Positions 12,690 to 64,000 of a stretch of 64,000 nt of DNA are shown piece by piece (the first letter of the stretch is position 1; each line of letters starts with the position of its first letter). Source of the DNA: Candidatus Omnitrophota bacterium (lineage in GTDB: Bacteria; Omnitrophota; Gorgyraeia; Gygaellales; Profunditerraquicolaceae); the NCBI GenBank assembly GCA_028716965.1, contig JAQUOV010000003.1, positions 5,302 to 69,301 on the forward strand, read 5' to 3'. A program made the position numbers and the translations under genes. The notes under the pieces are model-generated. The model saw only the letters and a program-made list of their open reading frames with translations. It had not been told where the DNA came from and made no database searches.

Positions 12690-12728
12690 CTCCCCTTTTG
12701 CTTCTGTCCTTGTAAATAAATTAAACTC

Positions 12729-15032: not shown

Positions 15033-15033
15033 C

Positions 15034-15882: not shown

Positions 15883-15889
15883 CCTAAAG

Positions 15890-16768: not shown

Positions 16769-18069
16769 CTTGCTCTTTTCTTGGCTAATTCGCGCTCTTT
16801 GATCTTCTGTACATCATCAGCCACCTGCTCCGGCGTCTTCTCTCCGATGATAATCGACTGGATACCTCTGTCAAAAGCTTCAATTACCAAAGAGAATTCC
16901 GAAACCCCCCAGATATTCGGATGCGTGGCATAATCCATGCCGCGGGCAAACTGCGCTAAGATCTCCGGTATCTTGGATAAACTATTCTTGTTTGCGGGCA
17001 GGTTATTGGTCTCCTGCGCTAAATATGCCTGTTGGTCCTGGTCGGTAAGCCAGGCCAGGAACTTCACTGCTTCTTCTTTATTCTTTGAACGGGCATTAAC
17101 CATAAAAGATGAACCTGCCCCTCCCCAGATAGCCATAGGGTATCTGCTTGATGCTTCCGGAGGGAGCATTGCTCCATACTCCAAATCTGGATTCATCCCT
17201 TTGTAAACATTCACGCACCATGAACCGTTAAAAGCAAAAACAGCTTTTTCGTTTGCAAAAAGCTGTTCAGCGGATTTATTGATCATAGTAACTATGCCTT
17301 TAGCCAATACACCTGACTCCTGCATCTGTTGAAAAAGCGCAAATACCTTAATCCAATCCGGGTCAGTATAAGCAACCTCGCCCCTTATTGTAGCCAATAC
17401 CTTGTCCTTGCCCATTATATTAAAAGCGTAGTTATTCGCCAGGCAATCAATCATCCACACCTCGCCCCAGCCGGAAACCAGCCCCTGCAGCCCGGCAGAG
17501 CTTATTTTATTGCCTATATCCAGAAACTCCTGGAATGTTTTGGGCGGCCGGTTAGGATTTAAACCCAGCTCCTTAAAAAGTTTCTTATTATAGACCATCT
17601 GGATAGTCATAATATCTATGGGCACCCCAAATATCCCCGGGTTGATTCCATAGCTGTTGTCGGAAGAAAATTCATTCACTGCCAAGGCCTTGGGGAAAAA
17701 CTTATTTTCCCAAAGGCTGTTATTAGCTTCCATATAGGAAGTTATATCCAGAATATGCCCGGCTTTAATAAAGGCGGCAAAATCCCTCTTTTCTCCCAAG
17801 ATACCGAAGATATCCGGAAGATTTATTCCCTGCGCCGCGGCGCGGACCTTTTGCGAATAGGCATCTGATGGGGCATAAAGCTCAAAATTTACTCTTATGC
17901 CGGTTAAAGCTTCATATTTTTTGGCTAACTCCTGGAAGGCGGGGTCCCTGTCTGTCATCCAGTGCCAGACGGCAATGGTAGGCTTGGTATCAATCTTTTC
18001 TCCTGAACAACCTAAAACTGAGAATAAGGCAAAAATACACAAAGCTGCGCTTCTCATCAACATCCTCAT
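16765..18069 (-). CDS. Extracellular solute-binding lipoprotein of a sugar ABC transporter.
   Basis: It shows an SBP family 1 pattern. A lipobox (LGCSGEK) follows a hydrophobic leader. The likely true start is the third Met (18061..18063), because the GGAAGGAG Shine-Dalgarno at 18071..18078 abuts the first ATG. Confidence 0.8.
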   Translation of the reverse strand: MRMLMRSAALCIFALFSVLGCSGEKIDTKPTIAVWHWMTDRDPAFQELAKKYEALTGIRVNFELYAPSDAYSQKVRAAAQGINLPDIFGILGEKRDFAAFIKAGHILDITSYMEANNSLWENKFFPKALAVNEFSSDNSYGINPGIFGVPIDIMTIQMVYNKKLFKELGLNPNRPPKTFQEFLDIGNKISSAGLQGLVSGWGEVWMIDCLANNYAFNIMGKDKVLATIRGEVAYTDPDWIKVFALFQQMQESGVLAKGIVTMINKSAEQLFANEKAVFAFNGSWCVNVYKGMNPDLEYGAMLPPEASSRYPMAIWGGAGSSFMVNARSKNKEEAVKFLAWLTDQDQQAYLAQETNNLPANKNSLSKIPEILAQFARGMDYATHPNIWGVSEFSLVIEAFDRGIQSIIIGEKTPEQVADDVQKIKERELAKKRAR

Positions 18070-18182: not shown

Positions 18183-18905
18183 TTAAGCCCTGAGCACACG
18201 GGCAATACCCATTAAATCCGCTTTCTCCAGATTTATTCCGCTGTGGTATTTGTTGTCCTCCTGTAATCCTGACCAGACCACCTCGCCTCTTAAATATAGC
18301 GGCTCCCCCTTATCCGGGATTCTTAGCCAGATCTCAAGAGGAGTCTTCGGCTCAAGTTTCTCGTCCGCTTCCAACCTCATACCTTTGGCGCTTAAATCCC
18401 GGGTCCGCGCCTGGCCTTCAGCCCCGGAATAAAGATTTAAAAAACTTAGCCCTAAACGTTTTTCAAACCTTTCGAATATCCTTCGGTCTTCAATCATATC
18501 CCCATCTCCCTTTGGTTGATTAATATCATTATCAATATCTTTCCACCATTGTTTATTAATTTGCTCCTGGAAATTACTACGCATGAATCTATATAACTTT
18601 TCTTTGCAAGGATCGCTGATTTTGGTAAAGTACAGGCCATAGGAGTGGTTTTCCCCAATCGCCTTATGCCAGACAACCCAAGCCTCCAGATTATCCAGGC
18701 TGCAATCCTCAGAGAGGACCAAACTTAACTTTACAGAGCTATCAACCTTGATTTTCTCAGACAGACAAACCCTTAAACCTCTAATAGTTATATCATAAAT
18801 AAGGCAATTAGTAAAGTCTTTCGCTGCATCAGCACCTTCAGCATCAAGCCTTATCTTTGCCTGCCAGTTAGCCCGCCACCTGATTGTCTGCCTATGGTCT
18901 TGCAT
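18183..18905 (-). CDS. Tandem PilZ-domain protein, a putative c-di-GMP receptor.
   Basis: Two RxxxR + D-x-(S/T)-x-x-G pairs are present: RQTIR ... DITIRG, and RRIFER ... DLSAKG. The start codon at 18903..18905 overlaps the giant ORF stop (18892..18894) by 14 nt. Confidence 0.55.
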   Translation of the reverse strand: MQDHRQTIRWRANWQAKIRLDAEGADAAKDFTNCLIYDITIRGLRVCLSEKIKVDSSVKLSLVLSEDCSLDNLEAWVVWHKAIGENHSYGLYFTKISDPCKEKLYRFMRSNFQEQINKQWWKDIDNDINQPKGDGDMIEDRRIFERFEKRLGLSFLNLYSGAEGQARTRDLSAKGMRLEADEKLEPKTPLEIWLRIPDKGEPLYLRGEVVWSGLQEDNKYHSGINLEKADLMGIARVLRA

Positions 18906-21900
18906 ATTTGTACCTCAAGAAATTTCTGATATAGCGGTCATCCAATATATCTAAAGAAAATATTCTTTTACTGCCAAGGTTGCCGCCCACACACGCCCCC
19001 ACTCCCAACAGGGACGTTTCTGAGGTCAATCGGGGGACGTTTCTTGAGCCAATCGGAGAAGTGTCCCCTTCAGCTGCCAGCGGCGAGGCGGATTTTTCAT
19101 TCGTTCTCGGATCGAAACAGGTAGTTAACTTTTCAAGTACTGCTTCCTTAATCTTCTCATTTAGCGAAACGTTATCAAGCGCTTCAAGTATTTCTGCCGC
19201 ATCTCTGGAATTTAAGACTACATGGTTTTCAACCAACGCTGTTAAAAAATCAATAGTCCTGTTGACTGATTGTCTTAAAGCCTTAGCCATATCCTCTTCA
19301 GTAGGATATTTCAGAAGCCTGTTCATATTCAATCCGGAAAGGGAATCAAGGAGGCCGCGGATAACGTCCTGTGCGATAACCGGCTTCTTTAAAACATAGA
19401 AAGGCGTTAAATCCGGAGTTAAGCGATACAGCACCTCCCATCCGGCTTCCTGATAATACCTGCTGGAAAACCTTGGTAAGTGCGCCTGCGTCACAATTAA
19501 ATACCCTCCCGGACGCACCATATGATAAATTTCATCGAGCGCTTTAGTTGCCGCCTCCCAACTCAATACATCCGCGCACAGCACTCCCTCCAACACAACC
19601 AAATCAAATAACCCCTCTTCTAGCTCATCGCTCAACCTTGCAGCATCGGCTTTAATAATACGGCCCTGAGTGATGCCGGCTATCCGGAAATTCTTCCTGG
19701 CAGCCTCAATCATATCCTGATTAATATCCGAGCCGAATACCTTGAGGTTTAACCCATTTTCCCTGGCCATATTATGGATATCCGTCAGCCGTAAACCCAA
19801 AGCGCAAGCCGGGTCTAGAACCTTTATCTCTCTCTTAACTGCAATTTCTTCGGAGAACAGTTCTTTAGCCCAATCGGCAATAAGGAATCCGAGAACACGG
19901 AACTGATAAGACTGAACAATCATATATCCTCTTGCGCCTCTATCCCAAAATGAATTATTGCGCGGCTCTATTGTGTAGGTGCCCCGTGACTCAATTTCAA
20001 TGCCCTTCGTCCGGCGCAAAAGCTCATAAATACCAAACTGGGGCTCAAAAAACTCTGCGTTAATCCTGATTCCCGCCATATCACTTAAGAAACTTCCCGG
20101 GATACCTTCTTCATCTTTATGAAGCACAACCTCCACAATCGCCTGGCCAACTTTTGGCCCTCTAACTCGTACGCTAATAACCGCGTCGGTACGCACCCTA
20201 AGCTGCCCCCGTCGCCCGCTCTTTATAGCCTCCAGAACAAACTCTTCCCATTCTGGACTTTCAGAAGTAAGGTCCTTATCATAATCAGCCGTTACTTCTT
20301 TAACAGCCATTAGCGGACGAATTGCCTTTAAGCGGGATGCCATCTTTTTTTGCTCAACGGCCACCCTTCGTTTTATCGCGCCTCTTCGCTCAGCAGAGAT
20401 AGAAACCACGCAGTCAAAAGCAAGCTGTCTTGTCTGGCCGATGTAATAATTAACATCCCTTTTGCTATTTGAGCCATTAAGCCCGAAACGAAGAGTAGTT
20501 TGCATGCCGTTATCCAGGGAAACAGGGACATAAGCCACGCCCTGAGGCAAAATCCTACCAACTCTGCCCGCTATTGGGACAAGCATGCTGTGATTAATAG
20601 ATACTCTGGAATCCTGCCCCGAAAGAAGCGGCGGACTGGGCAAAGCGCTTGCCATCTTAAGAGCTAATGCGATAAGATTAAGCTTTTCATATCTTATCAG
20701 CGTATCCTCGTTTTGCGGCGCGGGCGATTCTTCGGCGGTCCGCTGCAATAGCGTGTAAGAATCAACTGCGCCCAGTGGCAATTCATTTCCCTGCCGGGAA
20801 GCCAGACATTCTTCCAGACACGTCTTTAGCCACTCCCTAACCTTCTCTACTTCACCAAAATAAGCCGCCTTCTGTAAAATGTCCTCCACCGCGTTTAAGG
20901 GGAATTCTCCAAAAAAGTACCCGCAAAAAGAACCGGCTGTATTCCAAAATAAGAACCCGTTGCTTTCCTCCTCTTTCTTTGTCTGACAAAGAATCCACAG
21001 CAATTCCAGGATTTTGAAATAAACCGAGGTCTTTGTATCCTCAATTTCTCGTAGTTCAGGGTGTTGAATCCAGCTCATACAGGCGCTCTCCCCGGGCCTG
21101 CCCATAGTCGGCACATAAGAAACGCCGGCTTCGCCGATAATGCCTTTGGTTAATCCCCATGAATAATGCCCTCTGTGTTCGTCGGTGATAAAAAGTTTCT
21201 CAACCTCCGGCCGCAGCCTAAACGAAGCTTCTTCAACAAAGAAACTCCTTCCTTTATTGTAAATTTCCTGCATCCCGATATCCTTCAACAAAGTAGTTGC
21301 TTGTACTAGTAAGCCGTCGACTAAAACAGCCTTAAGAATTCCAGGCTGAGTGCTTGCCACGAGATTCCGCTCAAGCGGGGAAGCGCCCGTAGGAGGTAAC
21401 CTTGCCTGCGCCAGTGGCGAGGCAGCATGAACTTTATCTGCCCTTATCATAAAAGTAATAAACTCTACGAATTCTTTATCCCCTATAACCTGGTATTTAA
21501 TAGCCTGTCTTATTTTTTCGCTTGCGTTATTAAATAGTCTATACACTGTATCGAAATCATCATATTCTCTTAGCCATCTCTGTAAATCTAACATGAAATT
21601 ATATGTCCGTGTTTCGGCAATGCAAAAACCTGTTTGTCCTAGAAGATGTTTCAGACCCGACATTGAATAGAACTTAAAATCTGTCGGCTGTCTTATCCTG
21701 CTCATTTTATTAAAAAATTCATCTACCTCTTGGTCTTCATAAGATAAAACGTCTAACAGTATCAAGCTGGCTCCTATCTTTAATGCCCTGTTTACATTAC
21801 TAAGCGCTTTTTTTGCAAACTCAAAATGATGGAGAGAATAGCGCATAACAGCAAAATCAAAATATGATTCAAAATAGAGGCCAAGTTCGTAGGCGTTCAT

Positions 21901-24900
21901 TATTCTAAGCTTTATCCTATTATCTTCCCCAAGAAGTTCTCTGCCTTTACCAATAGCTGGCTCAGAAATATCCGTACATAATAATTCCTGGAATTCCATT
22001 TTTGGAAGAATTCTTTGCCAAACTAAACCCATTCCAGATCCTACATCAATACCATTGCCATTTAGAGATAATGTGGATATCCATTTTTCATGGGCCCTGA
22101 TTACTTCTGTATGAAAATTATGGGCGCCCTTCCGCAGGTAATGTCCTAAATCACGCCTGGTATGCATGTATCTGTCTATGCCATCCAACGGCGATGCGCT
22201 AAAAGAAGGTTCCGATGACAAAGAAGCATGCTCTATGGTCTTTACTAATTCCCTGAATGGCAGACGCAAACTAAAGCGTTTAATTCTTAAAAATTCCCAT
22301 GTTTCAACGGATAATTCCTTTACCCTTTCCGATGTACTAGTAATAAAAATGGGAGGTACGATTACGCCTGATCTCTGCCTGTATTCCAGTTTCTTGATTA
22401 AGGATATTCCGTCCATTACCGGCATTTCTAAATCCATAAAAATAACGTGTATTTTTTCATTATCAATTATCTCCAGCGCTTCTTTTCCGTTATAAGCACA
22501 AAATATTCTATATTTACCGGGATACAGGAACTCAAATACTGGTTCCATCCGATCTATAAAACATGCTATATCATTGACAAATAGTATAGACTTCTTTTCA
22601 GCCTGCGCCAGCGGCGAGGCGCAGTTAGAACGCAAAGGAGAACCGCTTATTGCTCCATTTATGGCTTGATGTTTACGATAGAGTATGAAGATTGACCACA
22701 ATATTAGATATGCGGCTTGCCACTCTCTTATCGTCTCTTTCAGGGTTCTCTTATTCGACTCTAATAATGGACGATAATTCTCTTCAAAATCTTTTATCCC
22801 CCTATAAAACCCTTGCGGAAGCCATCTGCCGAAAATATGGTAAATAGCAAATTGCCTGGAGTCATCATTGAGTAGTATCAACTGCTCCAAAGTAAAATCT
22901 TCCCCGGCTGTCGCAGGCCGCATATATTTATACTTAAGCGTCCTTCGTGCAAGCGCTATTTTCTGCTCATCGTTTAGATTTTCTATTTTCTTGCGCATCG
23001 AAGTCAACGGCTCATAATCAATGGTCAAGAATATCCGCATCGCCGCCTGCATTTGTCTCAGCCATTTTGGTTCATAATACAATTTCTTAAGAAGCTTCTG
23101 CATCCCCTCTCCCCTAAGCAAGATTTTAACTCGTTTACCGGAGGTCAAAGACCGGTTTGCCACTAACGGAGAGGCGGCCGGCAGTTTATCACTTACCTTG
23201 CCCTCTCCAGCTACTTTTAAAACAGATGTTCTTACCCTGTTGGAATAGTAGCGAAAATCTACGGACTCAAGCGTGAACAAACCTGCTGAATTATATAATC
23301 TCTCTGACGGATGCTCGTCAAAAGGATCCTGGATTATAATAATTCCATTTCCATTCAGGAATAAAGACATATTCCGCAGAGCTGCGATTTTATCCTGCTC
23401 GCTGATTGAATAAGTATCTGAACCATCACCAGCGTCTAACCGCCCAAACAAAAAGATGGCGATCACCAAATCGTATTTACTATTTGCGATTCGCGCGGGA
23501 AATGAGTTAATACCCAGAATATTTGCTTTATATATTTTTGTTTCTAAGTCGGCGGCTGAAATATCAATGGCCTCGGCTTCAATACCCCATGATTGCAAAT
23601 TCCTTAACAGTTTATCGTGATACGAACCAACTTCTAATGCATGAATTCCCGGCCTTGAGCCCAGCCATTTACTGATTGCCCGATATACCGGGATAAGCTT
23701 CATATTCCAGAATTCCGGAAATCTGCTAAATCTCTCTGCATTCAGCAATATTTCTCCATCAGAATTAAATCTTACCAATTGACGATTAGCATCAGCATTA
23801 TTCCTAAGGAGGTTCACATTTTTATCCAGCGGCGAGGCGCCATCTTTGCTTCGCTTGACCTCATCACCTAGAAACTTCTTCTTGATCAAAACAAGTTGTT
23901 CAGGTAACCACTTATCGAAACTGCTAGTCAAATAAACTCTTTTGTGTCCTATTAATGCTTTGTTATTTTCTACGCCTAACTGGTCAAAGATTACCATAAT
24001 GCTTTCCCTCACCATATTCAGAGTAACGCTATCTAAACCAAAAATGGTAACTTTTAATATTAGGCGCCCCTCATTAGTTAGAGGTGGTTGAAAAATCGAT
24101 AGCCTTAATAATTTACCAAAATTTGAACCCATATCATTGGTTAATTTGACTTTATCCTTCGGACGGTGTTTAAATGCAATGTTCATTGTAAAACTTTTAG
24201 GAAGGTAAAAGAAACGAACAATATCATCGACTCCTTTTGCAATAAAACGCGATGCCCCTGCGTGAATACCCAACGGATCCATTAATTTCACCTCGAAAGA
24301 ATCAGAATATTTTTGCGCCAGCGGCGAGGCGCATAATACAGGACGAACCTGAAAAGTAAACAACCGTTCCTCAATCAGACTGTATTTTATTTTCTTCGGC
24401 ATATCTTTAACTCTATCGCTCAAATCAGCCAGTTTTCCCGAACTAATTATCCTGCTGCGCAAAGCGCCGAATCCTTCATTAGAACAACTTAAGAATAAAC
24501 CGCGATCATTAATGAATTTTTCTGGATCACCCCAGTAATATTGCACAGAAAGATATCCTTTTAACCAGGAAATAGGAACCATCATCATATAATCAAGTTG
24601 CGAGTCAGTGTTTATTCTCCTGAGCTTTGCTTCTTGTAAAATGATTGCATTAATAACCCCGGCGTTTTCGCAAGAGTGATCTTTGAACGGGAATATATCG
24701 TTAACATGAATATTTATGGCTCTGTCAAATCCAGCGAATTGGATAGCCCTAAAGGCAGATGCGCTCTTTGCTTCTTTTACACCCTGTAATCTCAACAGTT
24801 CGATAAAACTGTTTACCAATGCTTGCTTTGGCATTACTTCGGTAATAATATCTATATCTTTTATATGAACCAGCTTCACAGCCCTATTGATATCGGCCAA

Positions 24901-27900: not shown

Positions 27901-30900
27901 CATGTAATTTATAAAACTATTCATCTGCTCCTTAACTGCTTTAAGCACGCTTAGATGAAACTCCAGATCCTTGGCAACCGCAGTTATATTCTTCACAGGC
28001 ACTGTTAATATCTCCAGCCTGGCTTTGGAAAGCGGCAACTGCAGTTTCCCCTGAGCGCTTTTTAATTTATCATCGGCTTTCTGCAAATCCATTAAATAAC
28101 TTTTGGTAGTAAATTTATCGACAAATAAAAACCTGAGCCACTCATTCCGTATTAAGCTATGGATTTCTAACACTGCGCTCATCAATGGATGCCTTTTTGT
28201 CCCGCAAGCTTTAAATACCACATCTTTTAACCGTGCGCATATCTGTTCTAGCAGGCTTGCAGTCAATTTTAATTTATTATTAATATCTCTGTTCTCTTTT
28301 TTGGCATCATTAAGAATTTGACCGCAACCAGAAGATACCGGTGGAGAGGAAGCAAAAAGGATATGACCAACCCCATCTTCACATGATCTGCGAACAAGTG
28401 GATAAAAACCAATGGGATGCAAAATCGGCGAGGCGATGGTATTATTTACGGGAAAAATAGAACAGGAGAGCTGAAAAAGCACGGCACCAGAAACAAAATC
28501 AACGAATTTCCTTGCATCCCTGGGAAAGAAATTCGGTTTATAATCATATACTGAAAAGATGCTCATTCCTATACTATGCGCCCGATACTTATTCTGAATA
28601 AGCATGCAAGAATGAGGAAAAACCAAACTATCTATGCAATCTAAATTCCTGCCATTAACGCAGATAGAAAAATCATCCGTGATGAAAACGATAAAATCTA
28701 CGGAGCTATCTTTAAGGAGCAAATGATCAAAAATTAAACGCATAAAATAAAATATATCTAAATTACCAGCGTCCGAGAGATTTATAAATCCTTGGGCGAC
28801 TGCAGTTTTTAACTGCGCATTAGGGGTTAAATAATGCATCTTTGTCTTAAAAATACTAAGCTCTTGACTAGCCTTTTCATTTATCGCTCCGGCAATATCA
28901 TAGCGGTGCCGCGCAAGCATGCCAACGCTGTCTATGCTTGAAATAACAATTGCCAGATTAGCGGGTTGAGAATTCATTCCAAAGCCGGCTCGGCAATAAT
29001 TCTTCTCGGCAGGGCTACTTGTGCCATTTGAAGTTGCAAATAGTCCATTCACTAAGCCTGTTCGCCTAAGCGGCGAGGAGCTGCGTTGATCAGTGCATTT
29101 TGGATTTGTAACTATTTTCTTACTTTGACGCCTCTTACGCTCATCTCTCCACAATAATAGCAAGCTAAGAATAGGAACCAATATAAAAAGTGGGATAACA
29201 ATATAAGAAAAAGGTGTTTTCTTAAGAAAAACGCATAATCTTTCAGTACCTTTAGAAAAATCATTTAACCAAGCCAATAAACAAATCCCATCAACCATGC
29301 CTAATATAGCTCCGAGAATTATGAACCAGGCTTTAATTGACCAAAACTGATCATTCTCAACGTCAGGTTCTTTGGCTTTATCCGCCAGCGGAGATGAGGA
29401 ATCAGGATTATTACTTTTATTGGTTATTGGTTTAATCTCTGACAAATACGGTTTAAATCCATTTATTTTCTCCAGCATATTATCCAAAAGCATGCGCATA
29501 TTTTGAAGCCCGACGCGTAAACTTGGATAGGCGTAAAGCGCATCCCGCATCCGCTCCACAGAAATGAGATAATTCTGGATCCTCTCTTCCAGCCTCCCTA
29601 TTTCAGCTGATACTTTTTCTTTGGGACGCGGCCACTCTGCCCAATACCCTTCATCAACCTTACGGAAATCGATCTCCAGGGATTCAAAGTTTTCAATAAT
29701 CTTTCGTATATCTATATTGATAAGGGAATGGAGTTCGGCGATATTGTCTTCAATCTCCCTGGTTGCTTCCAGAATTCCTGCTTTTTTTTCTCCGGCATCC
29801 AAAGATCCTGATATCTCCCTCAAAAATTCTGCGCCTTTCTTCAGCACGTCAGAAAAAGAAGGGAACCCCGTGATATCCGGTTTACAATCCTGGCGAAGTA
29901 AATCAAGTAACTGGCTGACACGCTTATCAATTATGAAACTATGCGGCAAGACAATTGAGGTAACAGAGGGTAAACCATTTTTCTGCGTGATACCAATAGG
30001 AATATCTCTTACCAAAATGCCATTTAATTCCCTGCTTGTCCGGTGGTGCTCCAGATATTGCTCTACCGGTATAATTTCTATGCCCTCGTTAACTGTGTTT
30101 ATTCTTTTTTCAGCTAAAGCAGTCAAAGGAAGAGGATCAAGCCCAAGAGCAATAATAAAAAGTGGAACCTTCTGATATTTACGGTAACAATCCAGGGACA
30201 GGCGAGAGATCTCCTTTAATTCCAGCGAAATCTCCTCTAAAGAAGCTGTGCCCGCATCGCTGCCGAGGATAATGTTGATGCTTAGCGACAATCCTAAACC
30301 AAGGATTCTCTTAATAAGATCTTGTGTTACCTTGATATATTGATCTCCGGACTGTGTCTTACCCAAGTGTTCTGCCTGAGAAGGAACAAATGTTTCCACG
30401 CCCACTGTCACTATCTTTATTCCGGCTCCTGCCATTAGCTTCAGCAGCTCTTCATCCGCAGGAGAAACAACCCTAAATTGGCAAATAAACGATACTCTTT
30501 CATTTAGTGCCAGTCTTTTTATTTCATCACATAGTTTTTCTATCCATTCCCTATCCTGGATAAAGACATCATCGGCAAAATCTATCTTTCTTACCCCATG
30601 CTCAATAGCCTGCTGGCAGATTTGCGCTACCCTTTCAGGGCTAATCCTGCGTCCGCCGCTATATGGAATCTGTATTGCGCAAAAGCCGCATTTCCCCGGG
30701 CAACCACGCTGGGCATATAGAGAAACAGACTTAAATCCCGCTTTTTTAAAAATATCCCAAGGGTAATTTATAAGGCTGTCCAATTCTCCTGAAAGCGGCC
30801 GGCAATGAAAATATCGCTGAAGCCTTTCCCCGGCGTCCATGCCCCCTGCTCCCTGTTTTCTGATCAAAACCTCTCCACTTTCCTTCTTCAGGAAGATCCC

Positions 30901-51900: not shown

Positions 51901-54900
51901 TCTCTCCCTGCTTAGTTTTTCTGTTAATACAAAGATATCTTTATCCGCAGTAAAGACGACCCCAAACTCAAATTGAGAGCCAGTCGGTAAAAGGTCACCC
52001 ATCGCCTTCCTTTTTCTTAAAACATCCAAAGCCTTCTCTAATGTATCCTTGACCTGCGCCGCATCAAAACTACCTGGCTGCTCAATAATAATATCCCCGC
52101 CTTTAACATATCCGCTTACGGGAAAAATGCGGCTATCCAGGGTGCCTATTGCAGAAGAAGAAATCTTGATTAAATCCAAAAACCAATCATTCCTCACATA
52201 AATTTTAATTTTTCTTTCAAGCAAAAGTCCTGAATAATCAACCACAACGTCTGCCTTAGCAAGCTGAGCATTTATTAAAGGACCTTCTTCCATCTCCGAC
52301 CTAGCAAATACCTTAAGATTTTGAGTAAAGTTATAACCTTTATTGACGCGATCACGACCATCCCTTTTGTCTAAACACAACAAAGGCAAATCATCCACTC
52401 CGATTTTGATTATCATTAATTCTTCTATTTCTTCCCAAAGCCATGCGTAAATACCTTCCAGAACAAATGCGTAATAATCTTCACCATAATATGGTCCATC
52501 ATGATCCTTCTGCTGGGTCAGTTGAATAATACGCTGCAAATATACCGGAGTGCTCCCGTCCAATAAATCTAAGATTATGCTCCGCATCAATAGATGATCC
52601 ATCATATCGGCACCCTTAAGGCCTTTTTTCCTCCTTTCCTCCCGCAGAAAGAAATAATTATCGGTCTGTAATCCTAAAAACGGAAAATGGATTGTTCTTC
52701 TCAACATTCTTATCAACATCCTGAATAATTCGCTCTTTCCCGATGCCCCAAAGCCGGATATGCCGATCAGTCTCCTTCTATCCCCGGATTCAATTCTATA
52801 GCCGTAGACCTTTAACAGGATTGCACAAATATCAAGGATAATATCGCGAAGTTCGCCATAGAATAACTCAAGACGTGTTATACCTTTCTTAAGCTGCTGC
52901 ATCTTGCACTCAAGATCCAAAGGAACAGTAATCTCTCTCAGCAAAGTAAATTTTCCTGAATTCCAGTTACGCTCATAATGAGGTACCCAAATCGGCTTAT
53001 TCGTTTCTTCGTCAATAATTAGACTGAAATATTTGTTTACCAAGCCATTCGGCAGGCCTCTCTTCAATGCTGCTGAGATCTTCTCAGTCATAATCCTAAA
53101 AATATCGGTCTCCTGCGCTTCTTTGGAAGTTAAAAGATAGTAGTAAGTTCTCCGAATACTATTTATATCAGTTTTAGCACCGAACCGCGATTTAAGCACC
53201 CTCTCTAAGCTTAGTTTATTGTCCTCAAGGCCGCGATACTCTTGTTCCACTTCGGAAATATGGGATACCAACTTCAGCGAAGAAGAGGCAGTTGGAGAAA
53301 ACATACGGATATCTATGCCGAATTTATTTTTCATTTCATTAAATACGCTTTCCAGGATCTTATGGTTATAGCCCGTATACTTAAAGTATTTTTTCCCTTT
53401 AGGTGTAACTAATTCTTCTTTTCTCTGGGAAAAGTAGCCTAAACTCTTAAACGCCGAAGGCCAGTCTACATCGTAGGCGATAATGGTTGAAATACCATAA
53501 TCCAAAACCTGCTTAATTCCGATATAGCGCAAAGTTTCTTCCAAGCCCTTGCGCTGATATGAATCTTGTATATCCAAACTCAAAATCTCCTCCTCCGCCA
53601 TGACGGCAATCTTCTCATCGGGATAAATCCTGAAAATGCTTGTCCCAATCCTCCGCTCGCTAAAATCATCGTAGAGCACATCAAGAAAATGGGATACCGA
53701 TACGCGTGGCTCAATATCTAAAATATACTGCCGGACTATAAATATTGCTTTGGGACTAATTACAACAGCAAGGGCAGGACACTGCCTCAACGAAACCCAT
53801 TTCTTATTGCTTTTAGGATCTATAAGCGCAACGGCATCACCGGTAATTTTTACTTCCTGACTGATCCTCTCGAAGATTGTCTCAAAAGAAACATCTTTAA
53901 GAAGCGGCGCATAAATACTTGAAGATGCCATAAGCCCGTCAATAATCTCCTGGCGGACTTGCGCCATAGGAGAAGAGCCTTTAGATGTTGAGAGTAGTTT
54001 TCCGTTAATAAAGAAGTTACTGGCATTAGGCTCAGGCAGGACTATGAGAGGGAATTCGCTGCGCGCCCCTCCTCCTTCCCAGCCTCCATTCTCCGATTTC
54101 TGCGGCCAGAGAAAACTTAGAATATGCCTTCCCGGCTTTAGGCCAAAAAACGGGACAAAATATTTCTCCGCGGCCTTTCCCTGTAAGGCCGGGATAAAAT
54201 GTTCGTACCCGCTTTCTTTATCTTGCAAATAAACGATAAAAGGATTGTCGTTTTCTATTAGAAGGAGCTGATCATCCAGCAGTAGTGTCTCTTTATACCT
54301 GCTTTCTTCCCAATTCCATTCCACCAGACGCTCTCCCAAACGCATAAAAATATTGCGCGGAGTTTTTCCCGGCTCTCGCAGGCTCTCAGCAATCAGCCCG
54401 CGTTCAGGTTCTTTGACGGAAGGAAGAATATGTTTACGCATCCACTCTTCAGGGCTCTGCTCAACCGATTCAAACCGGTAAATACCGATTTGTCCGGGAG
54501 CCAATTCCGTTTTGAATATCGGCGTATTCAGGACAAGCTGCTTTCCAGTGATGAGTTCTTTAAAAACGAATCTATTGCCTGGATGAAGCCCAAACTTCCA
54601 GAAAGGCAGCGGAAATTCAACTGTCTTAGGTATGTTGCTGAAATTAACTACGATTAAAAGATTATTTCCTTCGTGCGCCTTGGCAACGCATAGCAGGCGC
54701 TCGTCATTGGTAAAAATACGGGTTGCTTCGGAATAATTTACCGCGGAATTGTTCTCCCTCACCCACACACACATCTTTATTAAATCCGAAAAGTCAAATC
54801 GACCTGCCTCCTCCGTTCCCCAGATTATCGCCTGGTCGCTTTCTCTTTTCCACTTTGCCGGTTCTATCGTCCCCAGATCGTCAAGACTGAATATTTCGGT

Positions 54901-57900
54901 CTCTAAGAGGGGAATAAGGAGTGCTAAAGCCAAAAGCCCGGGCCCTCCTATACGTATCGCTTCCCTCTCGTTCTGTTCTCCGGTCAAGTACTGCAATAAT
55001 CCGAGCATCTGCCTGAAGAACCGCTGGTGGTCGTGGTTGCCAACTACAGTTTCTATGGCTTTACGGGAATTCTCTATTAGGTCATCACAATATCTATCCA
55101 GAGTTTTGAAACTTTCCTCAATATGGATAAACGAATACTGGATAAATCCCAGCCAATCAAAATTTATATCGCCTCCCATCTGCTCTATAAGGGCTAAAAG
55201 GTTATTCTCGCGGAAATGTTCGGCAAGCGCCCCTGCCAACAGACAATGATTGTTATTTTCGGGTAACCTGCCATAATCAATATTCTTATCCCCGCAGCCG
55301 CACTTATGCAAAGCATCTATCCACCAGCCGCTGATACCGGGGCATAGTTTCGTCCAGTACTTATACGGTTCTATGCGAGGATCAGTCTTGCCTTCTGCTA
55401 CGAGCCGGGCAATAAAATTCTCATCCCATAAAGCCAAATCTGCCCACTCCTGGTAATCGATCCTGTCGGGGCTACGCACTATGCTCCCCGGGCTCTGTAT
55501 TTTTCCATCTATAACCACAAAGTAATCCGGGTTAAACTTCGCCTCCGTTCCCTCTTCTGAGGGATAAAAAGGCATAGTAGGTAAAATACGTATACCGTCT
55601 TTCTTAAGAGAATTCTCCATTTTATTTAAATTTTCTACTCCTACAAACTGTTCATAGAAAATAAACTCTTCCAATTCCGGATAACTCAAGGGCTCCCTGC
55701 CGAAATACCGTGTTTCTTTATAATTTATTTTATCTACACCGTAACCTTCCCATAGAGATATTCTTTCTTTAGTTAAGCAGGCGTATTGCCGTATTTTCTC
55801 AAATTCACAAAACCTCCTGAACGCCTCCTTCCTATCGCTTTCGGCAAATTGTTTAAAATGTTCAAACTTATCAACTGGGAATTCTCCTGCATCTTGAACC
55901 TTGTTCCAGTCTATTACTCCCGGGTGCAACGCATAGAAAGAAAGAGGCGCGAATGGGCTTGACCAAGGTGTCGGAAAAAATGGAGAGAGGATGAAGACAT
56001 TTTTGCCGGTTTTCCTGTTGAGCTGACGGATAAAATCCTCTATCTCCGCGAAGGTAGGAACCAGCCTATTTTTTATAGTGTAACCGGACGAATATCCGGA
56101 TGTAATGACATCCGGAAGGAAAACATAATACGGATGGTAAGTTTCCCGCTTGAGCCAATCAGGGACTGAATGAATGTGTATAGTAGCAATGGAATCCAGT
56201 TCTTTAGCCCAAGAACTCTGGTTCCTGAGCCAGGCATAAGCTTTGAAATTAAAAAACCCGCTCAAACGCTGGGGGGTGAGTTTTACTTGCGCGACAAAAA
56301 CCTGTCTACCTTGCTTATCTCTTTCCTGATAAACATTATCTGCTGGTGCAGTAACATCATACCAGGAGTCTTTATAAGGATTATCCATGTTTGTGCGCAG
56401 CGCAATCGCCAGGTCCTGCGGCCTCAAGCCATATCCGCTGTTTACCTTAACAATGATTTTAACCTCAAGGCTTTCTCCCAGTAAGAGCGGAATATAGCTT
56501 CCGGCAGACGGTTCCATATCCAATTCCAATGCCTCCAGAGGCACATCTTTACGCAATTCCTCTAATTCTTGAGGAAGCACCGCTGAAGACGCTCTCCCTT
56601 GTTCGCAATTCTTCCTCCCAAATAAATTACTGCCTCCGGATCTTTCTTCGGTATAGCTAAGCGCCCGCATCACTGCTCCTAAAAGATCCGTTGCGATGGG
56701 ACTGGAGGTAACCGGAGATTGCAGAGCCACGACGGTCAACGTTTTTAACGGTTGATCTTCCTGCAAAGGGGTCCGAGAAATTTCATACGGCAGCCCCTGG
56801 CTGTCTTTACTAATGCCTATTTTCACAAATCCTGGATAGTGCCGATATTCTTTCTGTCGTTTGGGATAAAGAGCCTCAAACAAGATACGGGGACGGGAGC
56901 CTTTTGGCAGGTCTATTACACGCATGCTCATTCCGTCTGCCTTGCTTTTCAAATACATAACGAATATGCGCCCTTTTAAAGAATTTCTTATGCGGTTAAA
57001 ATTCTCTTGCAGATTTGCAGTGAGAGGAATTTCATCCGCATAGAAAACCTGTTTATCGCCTTTCGATCGCTCATAAGGAAACTTATATAACAGATACGCC
57101 CAGTACGGAATTACCCCCAGCTCTTCCTCTCTCGGCTGCCTGCCGCTGACATACTTTTCATATTCGGCCGGCTCAATAACCACTATTTCAAACGGCAAGG
57201 GCTTTTTACCTTCCCTAAATGCTATCGCAAAGCTTAAACGAGTCGCTTCATATCCTTTTTTGGATTTGACCTGCGGCTTAGTTCTATACCGTATACCTTC
57301 ACTTTTAAGGTATTTGACAATTATTTCTTTTATTAAGTACCTATCTTTGGTGATAACACGCACCCCCATGATGTCAACAACCTTTCTTCGCCCTTCTTCG
57401 CGCAGCAGGCCCTTGCGTAAAATACTGACCGCGTCTTTTACTCTGCTTTCGATTTTTTCAACGGTAACCCCGGATTGCTCAAATTGAACCTGCAGTTGAA
57501 AAGAAAATCTCCGTAATTCATTCTTCATTTCTTTGCGGGAAAGCCCGTATTTTACTTCAAGATTTCTTTTAATCTTTCTATAGAGGGCCGTGTGTACGAT
57601 CTTAAAAGAGATACTCCTCATTTTTTCAAATAATATGTATTCGTTAAGGCGTGCCGACAAAGGTACAAGAACTTCTTCAATTTTCCTATAAGTATAACTC
57701 TTTTTCCATTTGGTCGCTTTTGTCAATGCCTGAGTTTCATCCCCAAAATCAAGCACCAGATTATCCGCATCTCCGCAGGACTGGATAACGGCATTCTGGT
57801 AATTCTGTACGGTATTGCTTCCTTCAATTTCAGAAATAATGCCTCCCACAAATGGCCACCCCATTGAAACCTTTTCCAGGATTTCAACCGAGGCTTTTAT

Positions 57901-60900
57901 CGCTTTCGCATCATATTCCCGCAGGTATTCAAGTTTTTCCCATTGCCTCTTAGCAAAGAATCCTTTGCGCTGCTCTTTTGTTAATTTATGACAGAGGGCT
58001 GCCAAAATTATTTTTACCGGCATCCTCCATATCGCTAAGGTCAAGGCTACCTTCAGGGCATGTTCAAAATATGTGTCCTTGGAAAGGAATGCTTTACCGC
58101 CGTACTCTTTTTTGACTGCCCAGGCCCCCGCCGTAACAGCCCTTGCCTGCGCAGGGCTATAGTTTACCCATACTTCTTTCTTCAGCCGTCTAAAAATACG
58201 CTCTTCCTTCGGAGTAAAAGAACCCGTGGAAAGGACAACTGGAGAACTACTTCTAATTCCCCTCTTTCGTTCCTGCTTAAACGAATCTATTATTTGCCGT
58301 AATTCCGAGGCGTCTGCCTCGCAAGCGCATTCAGGCAACACGAATTTACGCCACAGCTTACCCTCCGATTCAGCCAATAATTCTCTATAATGACTGACGG
58401 ATAGAATACGCTGGCGCACCCATGAGGCCGCTATTTCTTTAACCCCTTCTTCGGAGACCCCTTCATAGACGCGCTCTACATGATAATAGTACCCTCTTCT
58501 CACAAATTCCGTTGAACAGCTGACAAATCTAGGACAAGAAAAATCAATTGATTTGACCTCTTCTAGGCCTAAATTTAAATATTCATAGATAACACACTTC
58601 CCAGCTTGCGCTATTGCAGATGCAATAATCTTTTCAATTTCATCAGGGTTATTAGTTCCTTCCGCTATCTTCATTAAGAATTCTTTCAATATATGCGTAG
58701 AATAGCCTGCTTCAATTGCAAATAATAGATAATTTATGTACCTTTCTTTTGCCGCTATTTCGCCTTCTTCAAAACCGCTCCTTAACTTATTTGACTGCGG
58801 AATACCAGATACACGCTCTATGGTAGCAGCAAGGCCAGGGAATAAGAAAACAATAACCCCCGCTATTACTGCCAGTAAAACGTATCCTGGCGTAATATTA
58901 CAAATTTCAGAAATCGAACAAAGGTAATCAATAGACAGGATTCCGATACACCCCAAAACTAGATATCTGAGGGTATCAGAGGAAACCGGGCTGGCAGAAT
59001 GCTGCCTTCGCGGAAGCTCGCTTCTTTCAAGCCCTTCCATGACCATATCCGATATTTCTTCTGCAAAGATATCTGGATTACCGGCAATATGCTGCTCAAA
59101 AGAACGGGTGGATAAGATACTCATCCCTGTCCTATGCGCAACAAATCTCTTTAAGTTAGGATTGCCGACAAGGCACTCCCCGTATGGAACCAGCCAGCTT
59201 ATAACAGGAACGGGCCTCTGTTTCCCCGCTTGGCTATCTTCAACTGCCAAAGCCAGATCCGTGACAACAAATACGAAATTATTTTCCGATATTACCCCGG
59301 GCATGAGCCGGAAAATTACGGAGGGGAAATAATTGAACTTTATGTAACGTAATTGCGAAAGCACATTAAGGTATTCTTCCTCGGGGTCGAGAACTTCATC
59401 CGGATCCTGCGATGTTCTGCTTAACGGCTGATAAACTATTTCCGGAGTATAGGTTATATCAAACTTTGTTCTCGCCTTGCGATGTATGGCGCCGCATACT
59501 CTTTGCCTGTTTTCCCATAGAAGCGTTGTATCGTCTTTCGTGATAACCGCTATTGCCACCTTAAGGAATTCCTGACCTGATTCCATGGAATTGGGTAGAG
59601 CAGGACTGGATCCCCCCCTAGAGATCTCCTCCAACGCGTTGCGAATAATCTCAAACCCCCTGGCGACCTCCTTGGGGCCGATGTCTTTGCTTTCCAATAA
59701 ATCATCAATTGCAGCGATACCGAACCGTTTAAGAAATAACAGCTTGGGAAACAACCGCTTCTTAAAAATATATCCGTCGTCATAGTCGATATTACCTGCC
59801 AGGATTATCGCTTCCTGCAGCGCATTCTTATCGGCATCAGTGCAAAAATCATCGCATTCAAGCGCAACTCCATCTACAATATCCTGCAAGAATAGCAATA
59901 CCGTCTCAAGAGAAGTAAATGTGGTTATATCCGGATTATCTATGCCTGCGCCGACTATACCGATTATCTTTCCTTGGTATAATACCGGCCCGCCGCTTGT
60001 GCCGCATTCTGACCCGGTATCCAAACTCATACGCTGTTCAAAATGACCAAAGAGTATCTTTTCACCTGCCGATGCTATGCGCCCCTGATATAATCTCAAT
60101 GAATTTTTTCCGATTGGATATCCAAGGATAACTGCATGTTTTCCGCAAATAGCCTCTTTAGATACCAATGCCGCGTCTGCCAAAGATATAGTCCGTGTAT
60201 ATTCTTTCGCTATCCCCTGCTTTTTAATTCTTAATAAGGCTAAATCAACTGAAGAAGAGCGAAAAGTATCTGCTACGACCTCCGCCTGTACCTGTATCCC
60301 GTTCCGAAGCCTTACTGTGACATCGGGGTTATATTCCCTGCGTGTGAATGAAAATGGATTGGTTACGTGGGAAGCGGAAAGTATATAATAATGCTCCTCG
60401 CTTGCATGAAAGACCACCCCTGTCCCTTCTCCGATATCTGATATATCCCGTATCCCCAACTGCCTAAGCAGGAACCCCTGATCATCTTCTTCAATGCCGC
60501 CCCAGCCTATTCGGATCCTTACAACTCCATTTTGCATCCCCTTGATAAAAAACTTGGGGCCTAAATAATAAGCAGCCGTTATATTTGCCGGGCTGCCAGC
60601 GCTCCGTTTAGGATTTCTGGATATATCCCCTATCACCTCAATACTCATAGTGCCGGCAAGGGCTTTGCCCGGATTCAAAATTACGGGTGTTGCTTCTAAT
60701 ATTCTTTTCTCCGTGTATAGGTTAAACGCATCGGTAGCTGATGTCTGCGGCTCAATACAGATAGTATCCTTATCTGCGGGAGCATAAAATACAATATGCT
60801 TAAATACGGAGCTTTGGGTTACTTTGATGAGGATACCTTCGGCAGGATTATAGAGCAAAGATGTATCGTGGGACAAATCGGTAAAGGCATCATCGTAATT

Positions 60901-63900
60901 CAGTCCATTTAAATAGCGAAGATGCCCGAAATAAAAATCCCCTTCTGAGTAAACCGGAGGGCCGGTGGGCATCTGGTTGACGGATGGCCAGAGCTTTCTG
61001 ACCGGCAGCATAACCTGCCAATTTTGCCTTTGCGGCGTATTAAACCAGGGATGAAATGCCCAACTCATTAACAGAGGCTTGCTGTCAAAGCTTTTGACGT
61101 AAATAATAACGTCCAGTTTATTAGCTTTTAGCCGATAAGTTACTCTGGCTATGAATGCCCCAAAAAAATCCCTGATTGCCTTATGCGCCTGTTCTCTTGT
61201 GTCAAGAGAACAGCTGATAAACACTCCGCGGGCGTCTTTTCCCCATTGCCTGACTTCCCAGATGCGTTTACGAATAAGCCCATGGTAAATATGTTTGCCG
61301 CCGCGGATGTCATAAGTAGCTCCCTCATCTTCCAGACCGGACAAATCTACTATCCTGTCTTGTAAATCAATAAATTTGCTATCTCTAATCCTGTTCGCGA
61401 ATGGTCCCAGTATAGGGTTTCCTCCTGGATAAAAAAGTATCTCTCTGCCATCAACCATATAAGATATAGCCATTGCTCCTAGTCCAGGGACAATATCAAA
61501 TGAAGAGCCATAGGTTAAATCGGATGAACGGAAAATCCTCATGTTCATATGATTTTTGCGCTCCCACTCAATAAAAGTTTCCAAGCCCAAATTTGGCTCA
61601 TCCAATGGAGAAGAAACAGGTTCCTTATCAGCCCAAACCTGAAGCAATGTTCTGATTTTATTTATTCCGCGCGTAAATCCGTTCTGTTTTAGACTGTTCA
61701 TCTTTCTGACCGTCTTGCCTAATTCCAACAAAAGCAGCAGCAAATCCCTGGTTTTATCGCTATTACTATGCTTCAATACCATCTGACGTATAAAAGGGTT
61801 TTCTTCCATCTCCACTATCTTGCTTTTTTCACTAAGCATGCCATAAAGTTGATTTAATCCTTCCAGGTTAACTTTTTTTCCGTTAAAGATTACTGCCTCA
61901 AGAAGACTGGTTAATAAGTTCCGCATTAATCCTTCGATCGCTTGAATATCATTTTCAGAAGGCATTAGGCCGAGAAAATCTTGTTCGCCTATCCTGCTGC
62001 GGCTTAGTATCTTAAGCCTTGTTTCAACTATCCCCATTAAATCAACAATTCCCTCCCCGCGCTTAAGATAATCTTCCTTTAATAACCGGTATAAGTCAAA
62101 TACTTCATCTCTTTTAGATCTTCCCAATTTTATAATTAAGGAACGAAGAATTCCTTCCAGATCATTAATCCGGGAGGATAATAATCCTTCATTAATCCTT
62201 TGTTTTAGATTTCTCCATTCTATACGAAGCATTCTCTTGCGCAAATTTTCAATACTAGTCAAACATTCTATTTTTTTTGCAAAAACCCTTAACTCATTCT
62301 CAAGATTAACAAGATTGTCGCCTCCGGCAGGATGCGCCTGGCCTTTCATGATAAGCAGGCATCCCAACGGTGAAGCGGATGAATTTAAAGAGAAAAGGGT
62401 ATTAACGAGAATAAAATCCGCGGGGAGGTAAATATAAATAGGAAGCTTGCCTCCTTTTAGGCCTGAGGCGTACTCTTTTAATTCTGAGAGTCTGGAGACT
62501 ATATTTTGCACTAAATCCTGCGGCCCGTTTACCAATATTCCTGGTGTCAAGCCTATAAAATCAATTTCCGGCCTGTCTCCTATCGAAATTGCCTGATGAG
62601 CCCTTAGCTTAAAATATCCAAATGCATAGTTATGCATTAGCGGTGAGGGTTTGCCTATTTTTATATCCTGCTGGGTCAAAACCAGGCTAAATAGCTTATG
62701 AATATCCAACGCCCGTAATACATTCAGAGTAATCATCCTGCTATTGTTGCTTTCCATAATAAGGATAAATTCCCTTGATAGCTCTGCAAGTAAAGTTTTC
62801 AGCTCTTTATCAGGGCTAAAGTATTCTTTTGGGCGCAATTTCTTGCCCAACTCTTCAAAATAAGCATTTACATCCAAGCCAAAGAAACGCAACATCCCGG
62901 ACATGCTGTTTTTCTCAGTTTTTACTCTTTTTAAATCCTGCAATGTTACATCTCTTCTCCCTTGCCTGCGCAACTGCTCCAAGGCGAACTGGTAACATAT
63001 ATTCTTATTTGCATCGCTAAATTCCTTGTTCTTTATTAATGTGCCGCCCAGGTCGATGATCAACAGCCTGAAATCTACCGGAACAATATTAGCGCCGGCG
63101 GGCAATATTAGCGCGGAAGAACAAATTTTTCTTTTACCTATCGTGCCCTCCAAAACAATATGCCATCCTGAACCTTCTTTCTGCTCTGCGCTGAAATATT
63201 TTTTGAACCAGTTTTGGACTTTTACATTTGTCGTAAGGCTGAATATTTTCCACCCAAAATATCTTCCCTCAAGAAAAACCACGGTATTCTCGGTAATCTT
63301 AGACATAAACCCCTGATTCCGTAAGGCTATCTCTGCAATTGAACCGCTGCGCCCCAGCGTTCTTTTGCAGGAATTAACCCTCTCCTTATATAAATCTGTA
63401 TTTATATGGATAATAAACTCAAACTCTTCATTCTCTGCGTCACCCCGCAGAATCTTACGCAGATGCCATCTTATGCGCCAGGCCGCGTCAATAAGCATTA
63501 TATAGTCAACTTGATTACAACTCTGACTATGCACTTCCAGGGCAACAGCTAACAAAGTCTTCGGCGAAAATATCGATTTCCATCTTAAGGTTCTTTTCAA
63601 CTCTTTGCGCACATAGCGCAAGTCTCCGGAGATATCGGTAACAGGGACCGCTTTATCGTTATTCAGTTCTTTGAATGCCTCAAGTATTTCCTTGCTCCAA
63701 ATCCCGGACAGTTTTTCCACTGAAGTTCTAGTTATAGAAGATACCTGGCGACTTGCCAGCGCAGAAGAGCTGAATTTTATCAAAGAAAGGGCCTCCTGGA
63801 AAGAAACCAGGTAGATGTTGCCGCTTGAAGGAGATTGGGAAGGCAAATATCCATCTATAACGAAGATATCTCCTTCTACCCCCTCCCTTATAACCTCTCC

Positions 63901-64000: not shown

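Follow-up and report, generated by a model that had tools for sequence, protein, structure and literature searches.

Giant genes of the Omnitrophota encode proteins of up to 85,804 amino acids (aa). One type, the Archaeovorins, combines glycosyltransferase, methyltransferase, glycoside hydrolase (GH), peptidase, S-adenosylmethionine (SAM)-methylase and NUDIX domains with membrane segments, and adjoins secretion and carbohydrate-import genes (West-Roberts et al. 2023, bioRxiv 10.1101/2023.11.21.568195). Most Archaeovorin-type giants also contain a divergent SecA_DEAD domain, and their peptidase is an N-terminal C39 or S8. In the same study, where 'giant' means more than 30,000 aa, unknown cleavage points were named as an obstacle to structure prediction and interpretation, and whether giant bacterial proteins act as one chain or as cut pieces was left as an open question. 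A later catalogue with a cut-off of at least 10,000 aa lists 916 proteins and describes a class of 'multi-enzyme metabolic clusters' with recurrent methyltransferase, HAD, HD, receiver, radical SAM and ROK domains and GH2 flanks (Nielsen and Lui 2026, bioRxiv 10.64898/2026.06.07.730766). A further system of interest is the MARTX (multifunctional autoprocessing repeats-in-toxin) family of Vibrio, whose repertoire is altered by within-gene recombination and whose embedded protease cleaves at Leu in inter-domain linkers (PMC5555677).

We analysed a stretch of 64,000 nucleotides (nt) from a Candidatus Omnitrophota bacterium (assembly GCA_028716965.1, contig JAQUOV010000003.1, positions 5,302 to 69,301 of the forward strand; hereafter, the window), within which lies the 3' part, 45 kb long, of a genuine giant Omnitrophota gene. 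The encoded polypeptide consists of about 35 or more autonomous cassettes of domain size, which are linked to one another through a conserved in-frame junction, typified by the peptide ASPL. Taken as a whole, the best explanation, which we regard as probable though far from settled, is a real giant gene of the multi-enzyme class, built as an array of cassettes that are joined and exchanged at this junction, with putative processing of the product.

The giant gene and its published class

On the minus strand, positions 18895-63999 of the window form a stop-free frame of 15,035 sense codons, ended by a stop codon at 18892-18894 (giant open reading frame, ORF, 3' part, 18892..63999). The frame runs through the right edge of the window, beyond which the N-terminus lies; because the corresponding frame of a relative (contig L001, JGI Ga0172370_10008435) reaches at least 688 aa further upstream, the true start is outside the window. 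A first-pass annotation, made from the letters alone, had reported a single ORF of more than 15,018 codons, a count that begins at the first in-window TTG at 63948, and had judged it too long to have arisen by chance. Both statements hold, since the other two frames of the same strand contain 1,298 and 1,072 stops over this stretch, which excludes a chance origin. Using a coding score based on the codon usage of 13 neighbouring genes, the frame of the giant ORF was the best in 30 out of 30 segments of 500 codons. This uniform codon usage, matching that of the neighbours, indicates that the ORF is coding throughout and argues against a chimeric assembly. The ratio of non-synonymous to synonymous substitution rates (dN/dS) is 0.15-0.33 in five blocks shared with L001, three of which lack a Pfam match; selection on the giant ORF is purifying. 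The MnmG protein encoded in the window is 87-65% identical to MnmG of about 70 Ca. Omnitrophota metagenome-assembled genomes (MAGs), versus about 50% for other phyla, which confirms the assignment to Omnitrophota. The resemblance to the giant genes of this phylum noted in the first pass is, thus, borne out on the host side as well, with 87% identity to the MnmG of an Omnitrophota MAG.

The giant ORF was cut into tiles of 1,000 aa, which were searched against Pfam, NCBIfam and PDB sequences. We retrieved about 27 domain matches from about 22 families, covering 31% of its length, and one further fold was recovered by structure prediction only. The commonest family, class-I methyltransferase, is present in five copies, and no family dominates. 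These profile searches support the mosaic of sugar, nucleotide-signalling, NAD, radical SAM, protease, kinase, receiver and membrane content that had been read from the sequence. The earlier figures were higher: five class-I methyltransferases are supported where at least six had been claimed, and the figure of more than 30 domains is plausible, not demonstrated. The ORF is not repetitive, as stated at first pass: aligning it with itself by BLASTP gave no off-diagonal match at E≤1e-3, and Tandem Repeats Finder (TRF) reported two tiny arrays only. There were likewise no matches at E≤1e-3 in any tile to condensation, AMP-binding, PP-binding or ketosynthase (KS) domains. The gene is comparable to non-ribosomal peptide synthetase and polyketide synthase (NRPS/PKS) megasynthases and to repetitive giant adhesins in size and in being a single multi-domain polypeptide, but it differs from them in lacking C, A, T and KS domains and internal repeats. 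An Rfam search returned no matches, and aa 1-500 of the window ORF had no relative among 185,579 species genomes.

The first-pass annotation had taken this ORF as a candidate for a new kind of machine. Comparison with the Omnitrophota giant families shows instead that it belongs to the published Archaeovorin-type or multi-enzyme metabolic cluster class, including the neighbourhood of sugar-import and GH2 genes. It shares with these giants the Omnitrophota host, a length above 10,000 aa, many Pfam families with none dominating, and membrane segments, as well as methyltransferase, HAD, HD, receiver, radical SAM, peptidase and glycoside hydrolase domains. A substrate-binding protein, two permeases, a GH2-like protein and a ROK kinase are encoded downstream of it. 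Its at least 15,035 aa exceed the 10,000-aa cut-off, and the orthologous locus described below encodes 18,716 + 1,951 aa. It differs in that its peptidase is of the S1 type; no SecA_DEAD, C39, S8, glycosyltransferase, NUDIX or HEAT match was found in the 15,035 aa available, the N-terminal part being beyond the window. Type II secretion genes are absent from the 18.9 kb downstream, the upstream side also lying beyond the window.

The ASPL junction and cassette exchange

A k-mer enrichment scan retrieved the tetrapeptide ASPL 16 times in the giant protein, against 0.3 expected. The strict form [AS]SP[LVIA] occurs 30 times, against 1.5±1.2 in shuffled sequences, and is absent from 5,911 aa of neighbouring proteins. 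A broad form, [AGS]SP[LVIAFM], occurs 38 times in frame, against 3.0±1.7. The 38 junctions are located at aa 542, 796, 1135, 1464, 1669, 1918, 2432, 2680, 3342, 4487, 5612, 5629, 5863, 6682, 6928, 7098, 8271, 9728, 9899, 9913, 10135, 10484, 11535, 11641, 11661, 11856, 12370, 12561, 12999, 13224, 13388, 13609, 13786, 13794, 13935, 14193, 14206 and 14971 of the window ORF. Annotated spans contain none of the 30 strict motifs and only one of the 38 broad ones (binomial P about 1e-5). They lie in polar linkers outside recognised domains, often 1-60 aa upstream of a domain or membrane hairpin, and S, P, T, K and N are over-represented in the 15 aa that precede the motif. Thirteen motifs, versus 5.9 expected (P=0.004), have the start of a domain or membrane segment within the next 60 aa. 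The segments between motifs have a median length of 246 aa, and many of them contain a single domain, among them those of 339 aa (aldose epimerase), 329 aa (protease), 234 aa (kinase), 141 aa (receiver) and 258 aa (methyltransferase). In two related protein fragments, P0002 and P0035, every Pfam domain is flanked by two successive motifs.

An exhaustive search with aa 5941-7140 recovered 103 related proteins, which define two modules. Module Y (43207..43956, minus strand, aa 6682-6931), a divergent HD-like cassette with ASPL at both ends, is exactly the segment between two junction motifs and is also found within other large proteins. Its stand-alone homologues are about 280 aa long, and 10 out of 11 of them end at the point that corresponds to the downstream motif. 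Module X (44080..46062, minus strand, aa about 5980-6640) is a conserved unit of about 650 aa that has no Pfam family and is common to more than 60 large proteins; its structural model shows a helical bundle together with a sugar-1-phosphate nucleotidyltransferase-like fold. The ASPL motif is present in the large homologues P0035, P0002, P0014, P0015, P0038 and P0003, and others carry different recurrent motifs. Word-indexed protein searches had returned nothing for aa 1-5000 at 1e-10 or for aa 5941-7165 at 1e-3. Since the exhaustive search found 103 relatives, these negatives reflect the limits of the index, not orphan status.

The junction is also conserved at the DNA level. The peptide consensus, small-[AS]-S-P-L-[AGVD], corresponds to the DNA consensus GCCTCGCCGCTG, extended as C GCC TCG CCG CTG G. 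Allowing up to two mismatches, the 12-mer occurs 21 times, against 3.6 expected; 19 copies are on the coding strand, and all lie inside the ORF. One exact copy (22609..22620, minus strand) encodes the ASPL at aa 13794, and further exact copies are at 23827-23838, 24319-24330 and 19078-19089. The last of these is the final junction, followed by a C-terminal tail of 65 aa (18895..19089, minus strand) that is 49% conserved in a related locus (L085). A 23-nt tandem duplication (19011-19056, two copies, 87% match) was observed within this tail. The 12-mer is not found in positions 1-18891 of the window, and both motif and 12-mer are only as frequent as chance predicts in other Omnitrophota loci (1.28 Mb). 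On these grounds, we rejected a DNA motif spread over the whole genome, of the type of a Chi-like or uptake sequence. Neither West-Roberts 2023 nor Nielsen and Lui 2026 mentions a linker, motif or cleavage site of this kind, so that, as far as these two giant-gene papers go, the junction motif and the cassette breakpoints are undescribed.

Four related loci were recovered in which the junctions could be followed; one of them, L084, is described further below. L001 shares five blocks with the window (42-77% identity), separated by large indels, and has nine junction motifs with the same DNA consensus. The 4,510-aa fragment P0035 of L083 (NCBI JAQTTO010000012.1) contains 15 motifs. L085 and L086 (JGI Ga0172371_10000459 and Ga0172375_10000511), which come from two other metagenomes, encode proteins of 18,716 and 1,951 aa, followed by a PilZ-domain gene; as their PilZ protein is 76% identical to that of the window and overlaps the preceding stop by the same 14 nt, they represent the orthologous locus. 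Only four blocks of this locus match the window. The ends of the homology blocks shared with L001, L083, L084 (a contig from a high-GC organism) and L085 coincide with junctions: 12 out of 22 fall within ±10 aa of a motif, against about 5% expected. The homology to L001 begins at a decayed motif, at aa 77. An aldose-epimerase cassette (60640..61491, minus strand, aa 837-1120), enclosed in the window by SSPL at aa 796 and GSPA at aa 1135, is absent from L001, where the same two motifs are 14 aa apart. One junction of L085, at aa 821 of a 1,980-aa open frame containing P0002 (aa 792 of P0002), is chimeric. The 60 nt upstream of it are 80% identical to those of the window junction at aa 13388 and 33% to those at aa 6682, and the 60 nt downstream are 82% identical to those at aa 6682 and 23% to those at aa 13388; the switch in identity falls inside the 12-mer.

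The related loci hold the same cassettes in another order and with other content, homology starting and stopping at the junction, which shows that cassettes are gained, lost and reordered in frame there. The orthologous locus of a close relative shares almost no cassettes with the window, and the junction explains how such genes can rapidly alter their content and stay in frame. Where junctions are orthologous, the peptide was kept in 5 out of 5 cases in a context of 42-77% flanking identity, with synonymous sites differing at about the background rate, and in junctions that have drifted Ser is encoded by AGY as well as by TCN. Because the peptide is retained despite synonymous drift and in both Ser codon families, it is under selection. 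The DNA consensus is best explained by a shared origin of the junctions or by exchange among them. The apparent split of L083 into several genes was rejected as evidence, the gaps being scaffolding runs of N.

The ORF could, alternatively, be an artefact of chimeric assembly, or a pseudogene in decay whose remains are read as a single frame. This could account for the window not being found in the public collections searched, exact look-ups of three neighbouring proteins in public assemblies having returned nothing, and would fit the in-frame TAA in L001 and the frame change between the 18,716- and 1,951-aa genes in L085. We judge it very improbable: the 45 kb are free of stops, codon usage is uniform and the same as that of the neighbours, selection is purifying, and giant genes are present at the orthologous locus on independent contigs from other samples. 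Misassembly driven by the junction repeat was rejected in particular, as this repeat spans only 12-15 nt, less than assembly k-mers.

Some irregularities of the relatives are worth recording. In L001, a single in-frame TAA is found at 7950-7952, after which the frame continues. In the L085/L086 locus, the frame switches between the 18,716- and 1,951-aa genes at 9914-10003 of L085, the two genes overlapping at TAGTG and both frames being open over 87 nt. Such interruptions may be genuine gene boundaries, sites of recoding or signs of decay. The part of L001 that is the counterpart of the region upstream of the window (3-3002, aa 150-230) encodes a PEP-utilising mobile domain, in keeping with the pyruvate phosphate dikinase domains that have been described in Archaeovorins.

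Putative processing at the junction

The giant ORF encodes a chymotrypsin-fold S1 protease (Trypsin_2, 59956..60426, minus strand, aa 1192-1348). When aligned to trypsin, the candidate triad is in place: His (SASHV, H1211), Asp (NPDVT, D1226) and Ser (GTSGGP, S1335). The position equivalent to trypsin residue 189 is Gly, that is, an uncharged position in the S1 pocket. This protease is 77% identical in L001. A-S-P-L followed by a small residue resembles AAPL and AAPF, classic substrates of chymotrypsin-fold and subtilisin proteases. These features make polyprotein-like cleavage at the junctions plausible, the junction peptide doubling as the processing site. The suggestion that the protein is possibly processed, made before either the motif or the intact embedded protease had been noticed, thereby gains concrete, though indirect, backing, cleavage itself being putative.

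Under this mechanism, the product would act as a polyprotein that releases, or flexibly tethers, a set of enzymes in fixed stoichiometry, some of which would be anchored by membrane hairpins. The enzymes would be of the cytoplasmic type, requiring ATP, SAM, NAD, Fe-S clusters or phosphotransfer and acting on nucleotides, NAD and sugar nucleotides or in signalling. Given the known requirements of these families, the modules should work in a cytoplasm, that of the cell itself or, more speculatively, that of a prey. The junction motif supplies candidate cleavage points, natural tiling boundaries for structure prediction and a direct proteomic test, namely protein termini at ...SPL|X.

Several observations weigh against this explanation. 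The fragments P0002 and P0035 carry the motif but no Trypsin_2 in the parts available. Not every domain boundary has a motif, since some inter-motif segments are long, reaching 1,457 aa, and comprise several domains. Not every module can be an active enzyme, because several catalytic motifs are degenerate: the first NadD-like domain lacks HxGH, the first SpoT-type HD region has HK for HD, the HAD domain has Gly at the Asp+2 position, and the RelA synthetase-like region is only partially conserved. Membrane topology was judged from hydropathy alone. Finally, codon choice at the junctions is biased, TCG accounting for 14 out of 30 motif Ser codons versus 10% of the Ser codons in the ORF, and CCG for 20 out of 30. 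C precedes the motif, at a synonymous position, in 17 out of 20 cases, and G follows it in 17 out of 20. This bias and the conserved flanking bases show that a nucleotide-level force also acts, which a pure protease-site model does not explain.

The same bias, in which the DNA consensus exceeds the peptide, raises the alternative that the junction acts at the nucleic-acid level, either as a recombination site for a dedicated enzyme or as an mRNA or translation signal (for example, a TCG-CCG pause for domain folding), with the peptide as a by-product. It agrees with the crossover inside the 12-mer and with the recurrence of the consensus in L001, L083 and L085 despite highly diverged cassettes. 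It does not account for orthologous junctions that retain the peptide although their synonymous sites vary at about the background rate, nor for older junctions whose DNA has drifted (AGT TCT CCA GTT and similar) and that still read SSP[VI]; moreover, no recombinase gene is present in the 18.9 kb downstream. We, therefore, rate it as quite improbable.

A second alternative is that the protein remains one uncleaved, membrane-tethered mega-enzyme or scaffold, ASPL being a flexible linker or helix cap that tolerates recombination. The S/P/T/K/N-rich linkers around the junctions favour it, as does the disorder predicted just before the junction at aa 6682 by an AlphaFold2 (AF2) model; a single-sequence AF2 model of aa 13224-14192, with a predicted confidence (pLDDT) of 31, was not used. 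Breakpoints in linkers are, moreover, those expected to survive selection, and the published view leaves both the cleaved and the uncleaved option open. A generic linker, however, needs no four-residue motif kept in 5 out of 5 cases with both Ser codon families, the embedded protease is intact and conserved, and other lineages have their own, equally sharp motifs. For these reasons, we consider an uncleaved scaffold unlikely, but deserving of serious attention.

Those other motifs come from large homologues and from a relative of the protease. P0048 (L084 76-24057), a protein of 7,993 aa from an organism with 66% GC, is followed by sugar-binding and GH94/glycoamylase genes and contains ten copies of (L/P)P[IV]AGGSGE, none of them inside a Pfam domain. 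Its I-x-G-G|S shape recalls the double-glycine cleavage sites of C39 peptidases; a C39 domain was not detected in P0048, and an Rce1-like protease domain is present. On the contig L082 (1046-4348), labelled Elusimicrobia, a protease 33% identical to that of the giant ORF is encoded, and S[AS]AGLEE occurs three times, against 0.04 expected, with Leu in the position equivalent to that in ASPL. One of these copies lies at the extreme N-terminus of the 814-aa GATase protein encoded upstream. Among the large homologues from the exhaustive search, GAR[AM]A was also observed 11 times in P0104 and RAEVR six times in P0063; these may be further lineage-specific junctions.

A broader proposal is that the giants of Omnitrophota, together with those of one or more unrelated high-GC lineages, are arrays of in-frame cassettes, whole enzymes being inserted and removed at a short lineage-specific junction, with ASPL in the window, PIAGGSGE in another lineage and possibly other motifs elsewhere. 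This junction would double as the cleavage site of an embedded, co-evolving protease, and the polyprotein would deliver dozens of enzymes in fixed stoichiometry, possibly into prey in a MARTX-like manner. We advance this only tentatively, as a doubtful extension of the cleavage mechanism. If lineage-specific junctions were general, the proteins of at least 10,000 aa listed in public catalogues could be re-segmented into real functional units.

MARTX toxins are the closest mechanistic counterpart of the window ORF, both being large mosaics of unrelated catalytic domains. Pfam searches of the ORF and its neighbours revealed, however, no RTX repeats, C80 cysteine protease or type I secretion genes. 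The protease is a serine protease of the S1 type, the ORF is at least three times longer, and delivery and cleavage of the MARTX kind are only putative here. Viral polyproteins also contain an embedded chymotrypsin-fold protease and a short recurrent boundary motif that differs between lineages, features that have their parallel in the window ORF. The latter differs in being a cellular gene for metabolic and signalling enzymes, in that its processing is putative, and in that the junction DNA is conserved as a crossover point. In CdiA/Rhs polymorphic toxins, a short conserved demarcation motif (e.g. VENN) marks the recombination point for variable modules. These toxins have a single junction per protein and follow a toxin/immunity logic, whereas the window contains dozens of junctions and no immunity genes.

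Domain map and neighbouring genes

Counting from its upstream end, the first domain recognised in the available part of the giant ORF is a HAD hydrolase (62557..63069, aa 311-481; all features in this section are on the minus strand), whose motif I, DLGGT, retains the nucleophile Asp. Downstream of the epimerase and protease cassettes, there is a RelA/SpoT-like region (57184..58092, aa 1970-2272) with the degenerate HD part and a synthetase-like part below the Pfam cut-off. It is followed by a partial GH77 (4-alpha-glucanotransferase; 55510..56052, aa 2650-2830), identified by the Pfam, NCBIfam and PDB search, and by a uridine kinase (Udk)/PRK-like domain (52237..52791, aa 3737-3921), identified by profile and PDB sequence search. 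An ACT domain (aa 4602-4667) and a SpoT-type HD hydrolase (aa 4703-4911) with intact HD...ED and DRIHN motifs lie together at 49267..50196. The tile searches also placed a methyltransferase at aa 5387-5510, a Ser/Thr-kinase (STK)/Bud32-like domain at 46501..47001 (aa 5667-5833) and a DIT1_PvcA domain at aa 7166-7285.

A pseudokinase-fold domain resembling SidJ is located at 39715..40398 (aa 7868-8095), with E about 1e-15 to SidJ structures. SidJ itself is a calmodulin-dependent glutamylase with a pseudokinase fold. This relative of the Legionella effector scores far below the NCBIfam family cut-off. Beyond it, an NAD-related block (34870..39171) comprises the NadD-like domain without HxGH (aa 8277-8480), a methyltransferase (aa 8523-8660), NnrD (aa 8802-9077; 194 bits, above the NCBIfam curated cut-off), an APH/homoserine-kinase-like domain (aa 9185-9410) and a second NadD-like domain with intact HLAH and ISST motifs (aa 9492-9710). 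An HD/HDIG domain with an intact HDLGK (aa 10556-10676) and a B12-binding radical SAM domain (aa 10859-11270) occupy 30190..32334, the CxxxCxxC signature of the latter being CPGKCGFC at aa 11100. Towards the C-terminus, tile searches gave a weak methyltransferase (aa 12796-12860) and two class-I methyltransferase cassettes (19435..22074, aa 13976-14127 and 14701-14855). A receiver domain (22270..22599, aa 13801-13910) lies exactly between the ASPL motifs at aa 13794 and aa 13935. Methyltransferase motif I is intact in four out of five copies, as is the phospho-acceptor Asp of the receiver.

Eight segments of the giant ORF have a Kyte-Doolittle hydropathy above 2.0, in addition to an MFS_1 match that represents half an MFS transporter with a six-helix bundle (48370..48930, aa 5024-5210). 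Hydropathy predicts a hydrophobic hairpin at 58807..58965 (aa 1679-1731) and similar membrane segments at aa 5879-5940, 10136-10164 and 11555-11620. Each of these four is preceded by a junction motif 1-20 aa upstream.

All 13 other genes of the window are on the same strand and downstream of the giant ORF. The first, a PilZ-domain gene (18183..18905), provides the 14-nt overlap with the giant-ORF stop that is conserved in L085/L086, where the PilZ gene of L085 is at 15834-16307. This arrangement suggests translational coupling of the cyclic di-GMP (c-di-GMP) receptor PilZ to the giant gene. The following co-oriented genes (4990..18069) encode an ABC sugar-binding protein, two permeases, a GH2-like protein, a protein without assignment, a weak GH72-like protein, a TPR protein, a ROK kinase, a coiled-coil protein and a LacI regulator; the B12-dependent ribonucleotide reductase NrdJ and MnmG come next. 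The giant gene and the PilZ, sugar ABC importer, GH2-like and ROK genes downstream of it would be expressed together. No consistent ribosome-binding site was found in the upstream regions of the neighbouring genes, and no homologue of the giant gene was found within 10 kb of MnmG in 80 loci (1.28 Mb).

Two observations arose from these neighbours. NrdJ (2527-4821) and the B12-binding radical SAM module of the giant ORF (30190-31425) together imply a dependence on cobalamin. Furthermore, many MAGs labelled 'uncultured Planctomycetales' (L003, L006, L007, L011, L013 and others) encode an MnmG that is 76-84% identical to that of the window and falls amid the Omnitrophota matches; their taxonomic labels are probably wrong.

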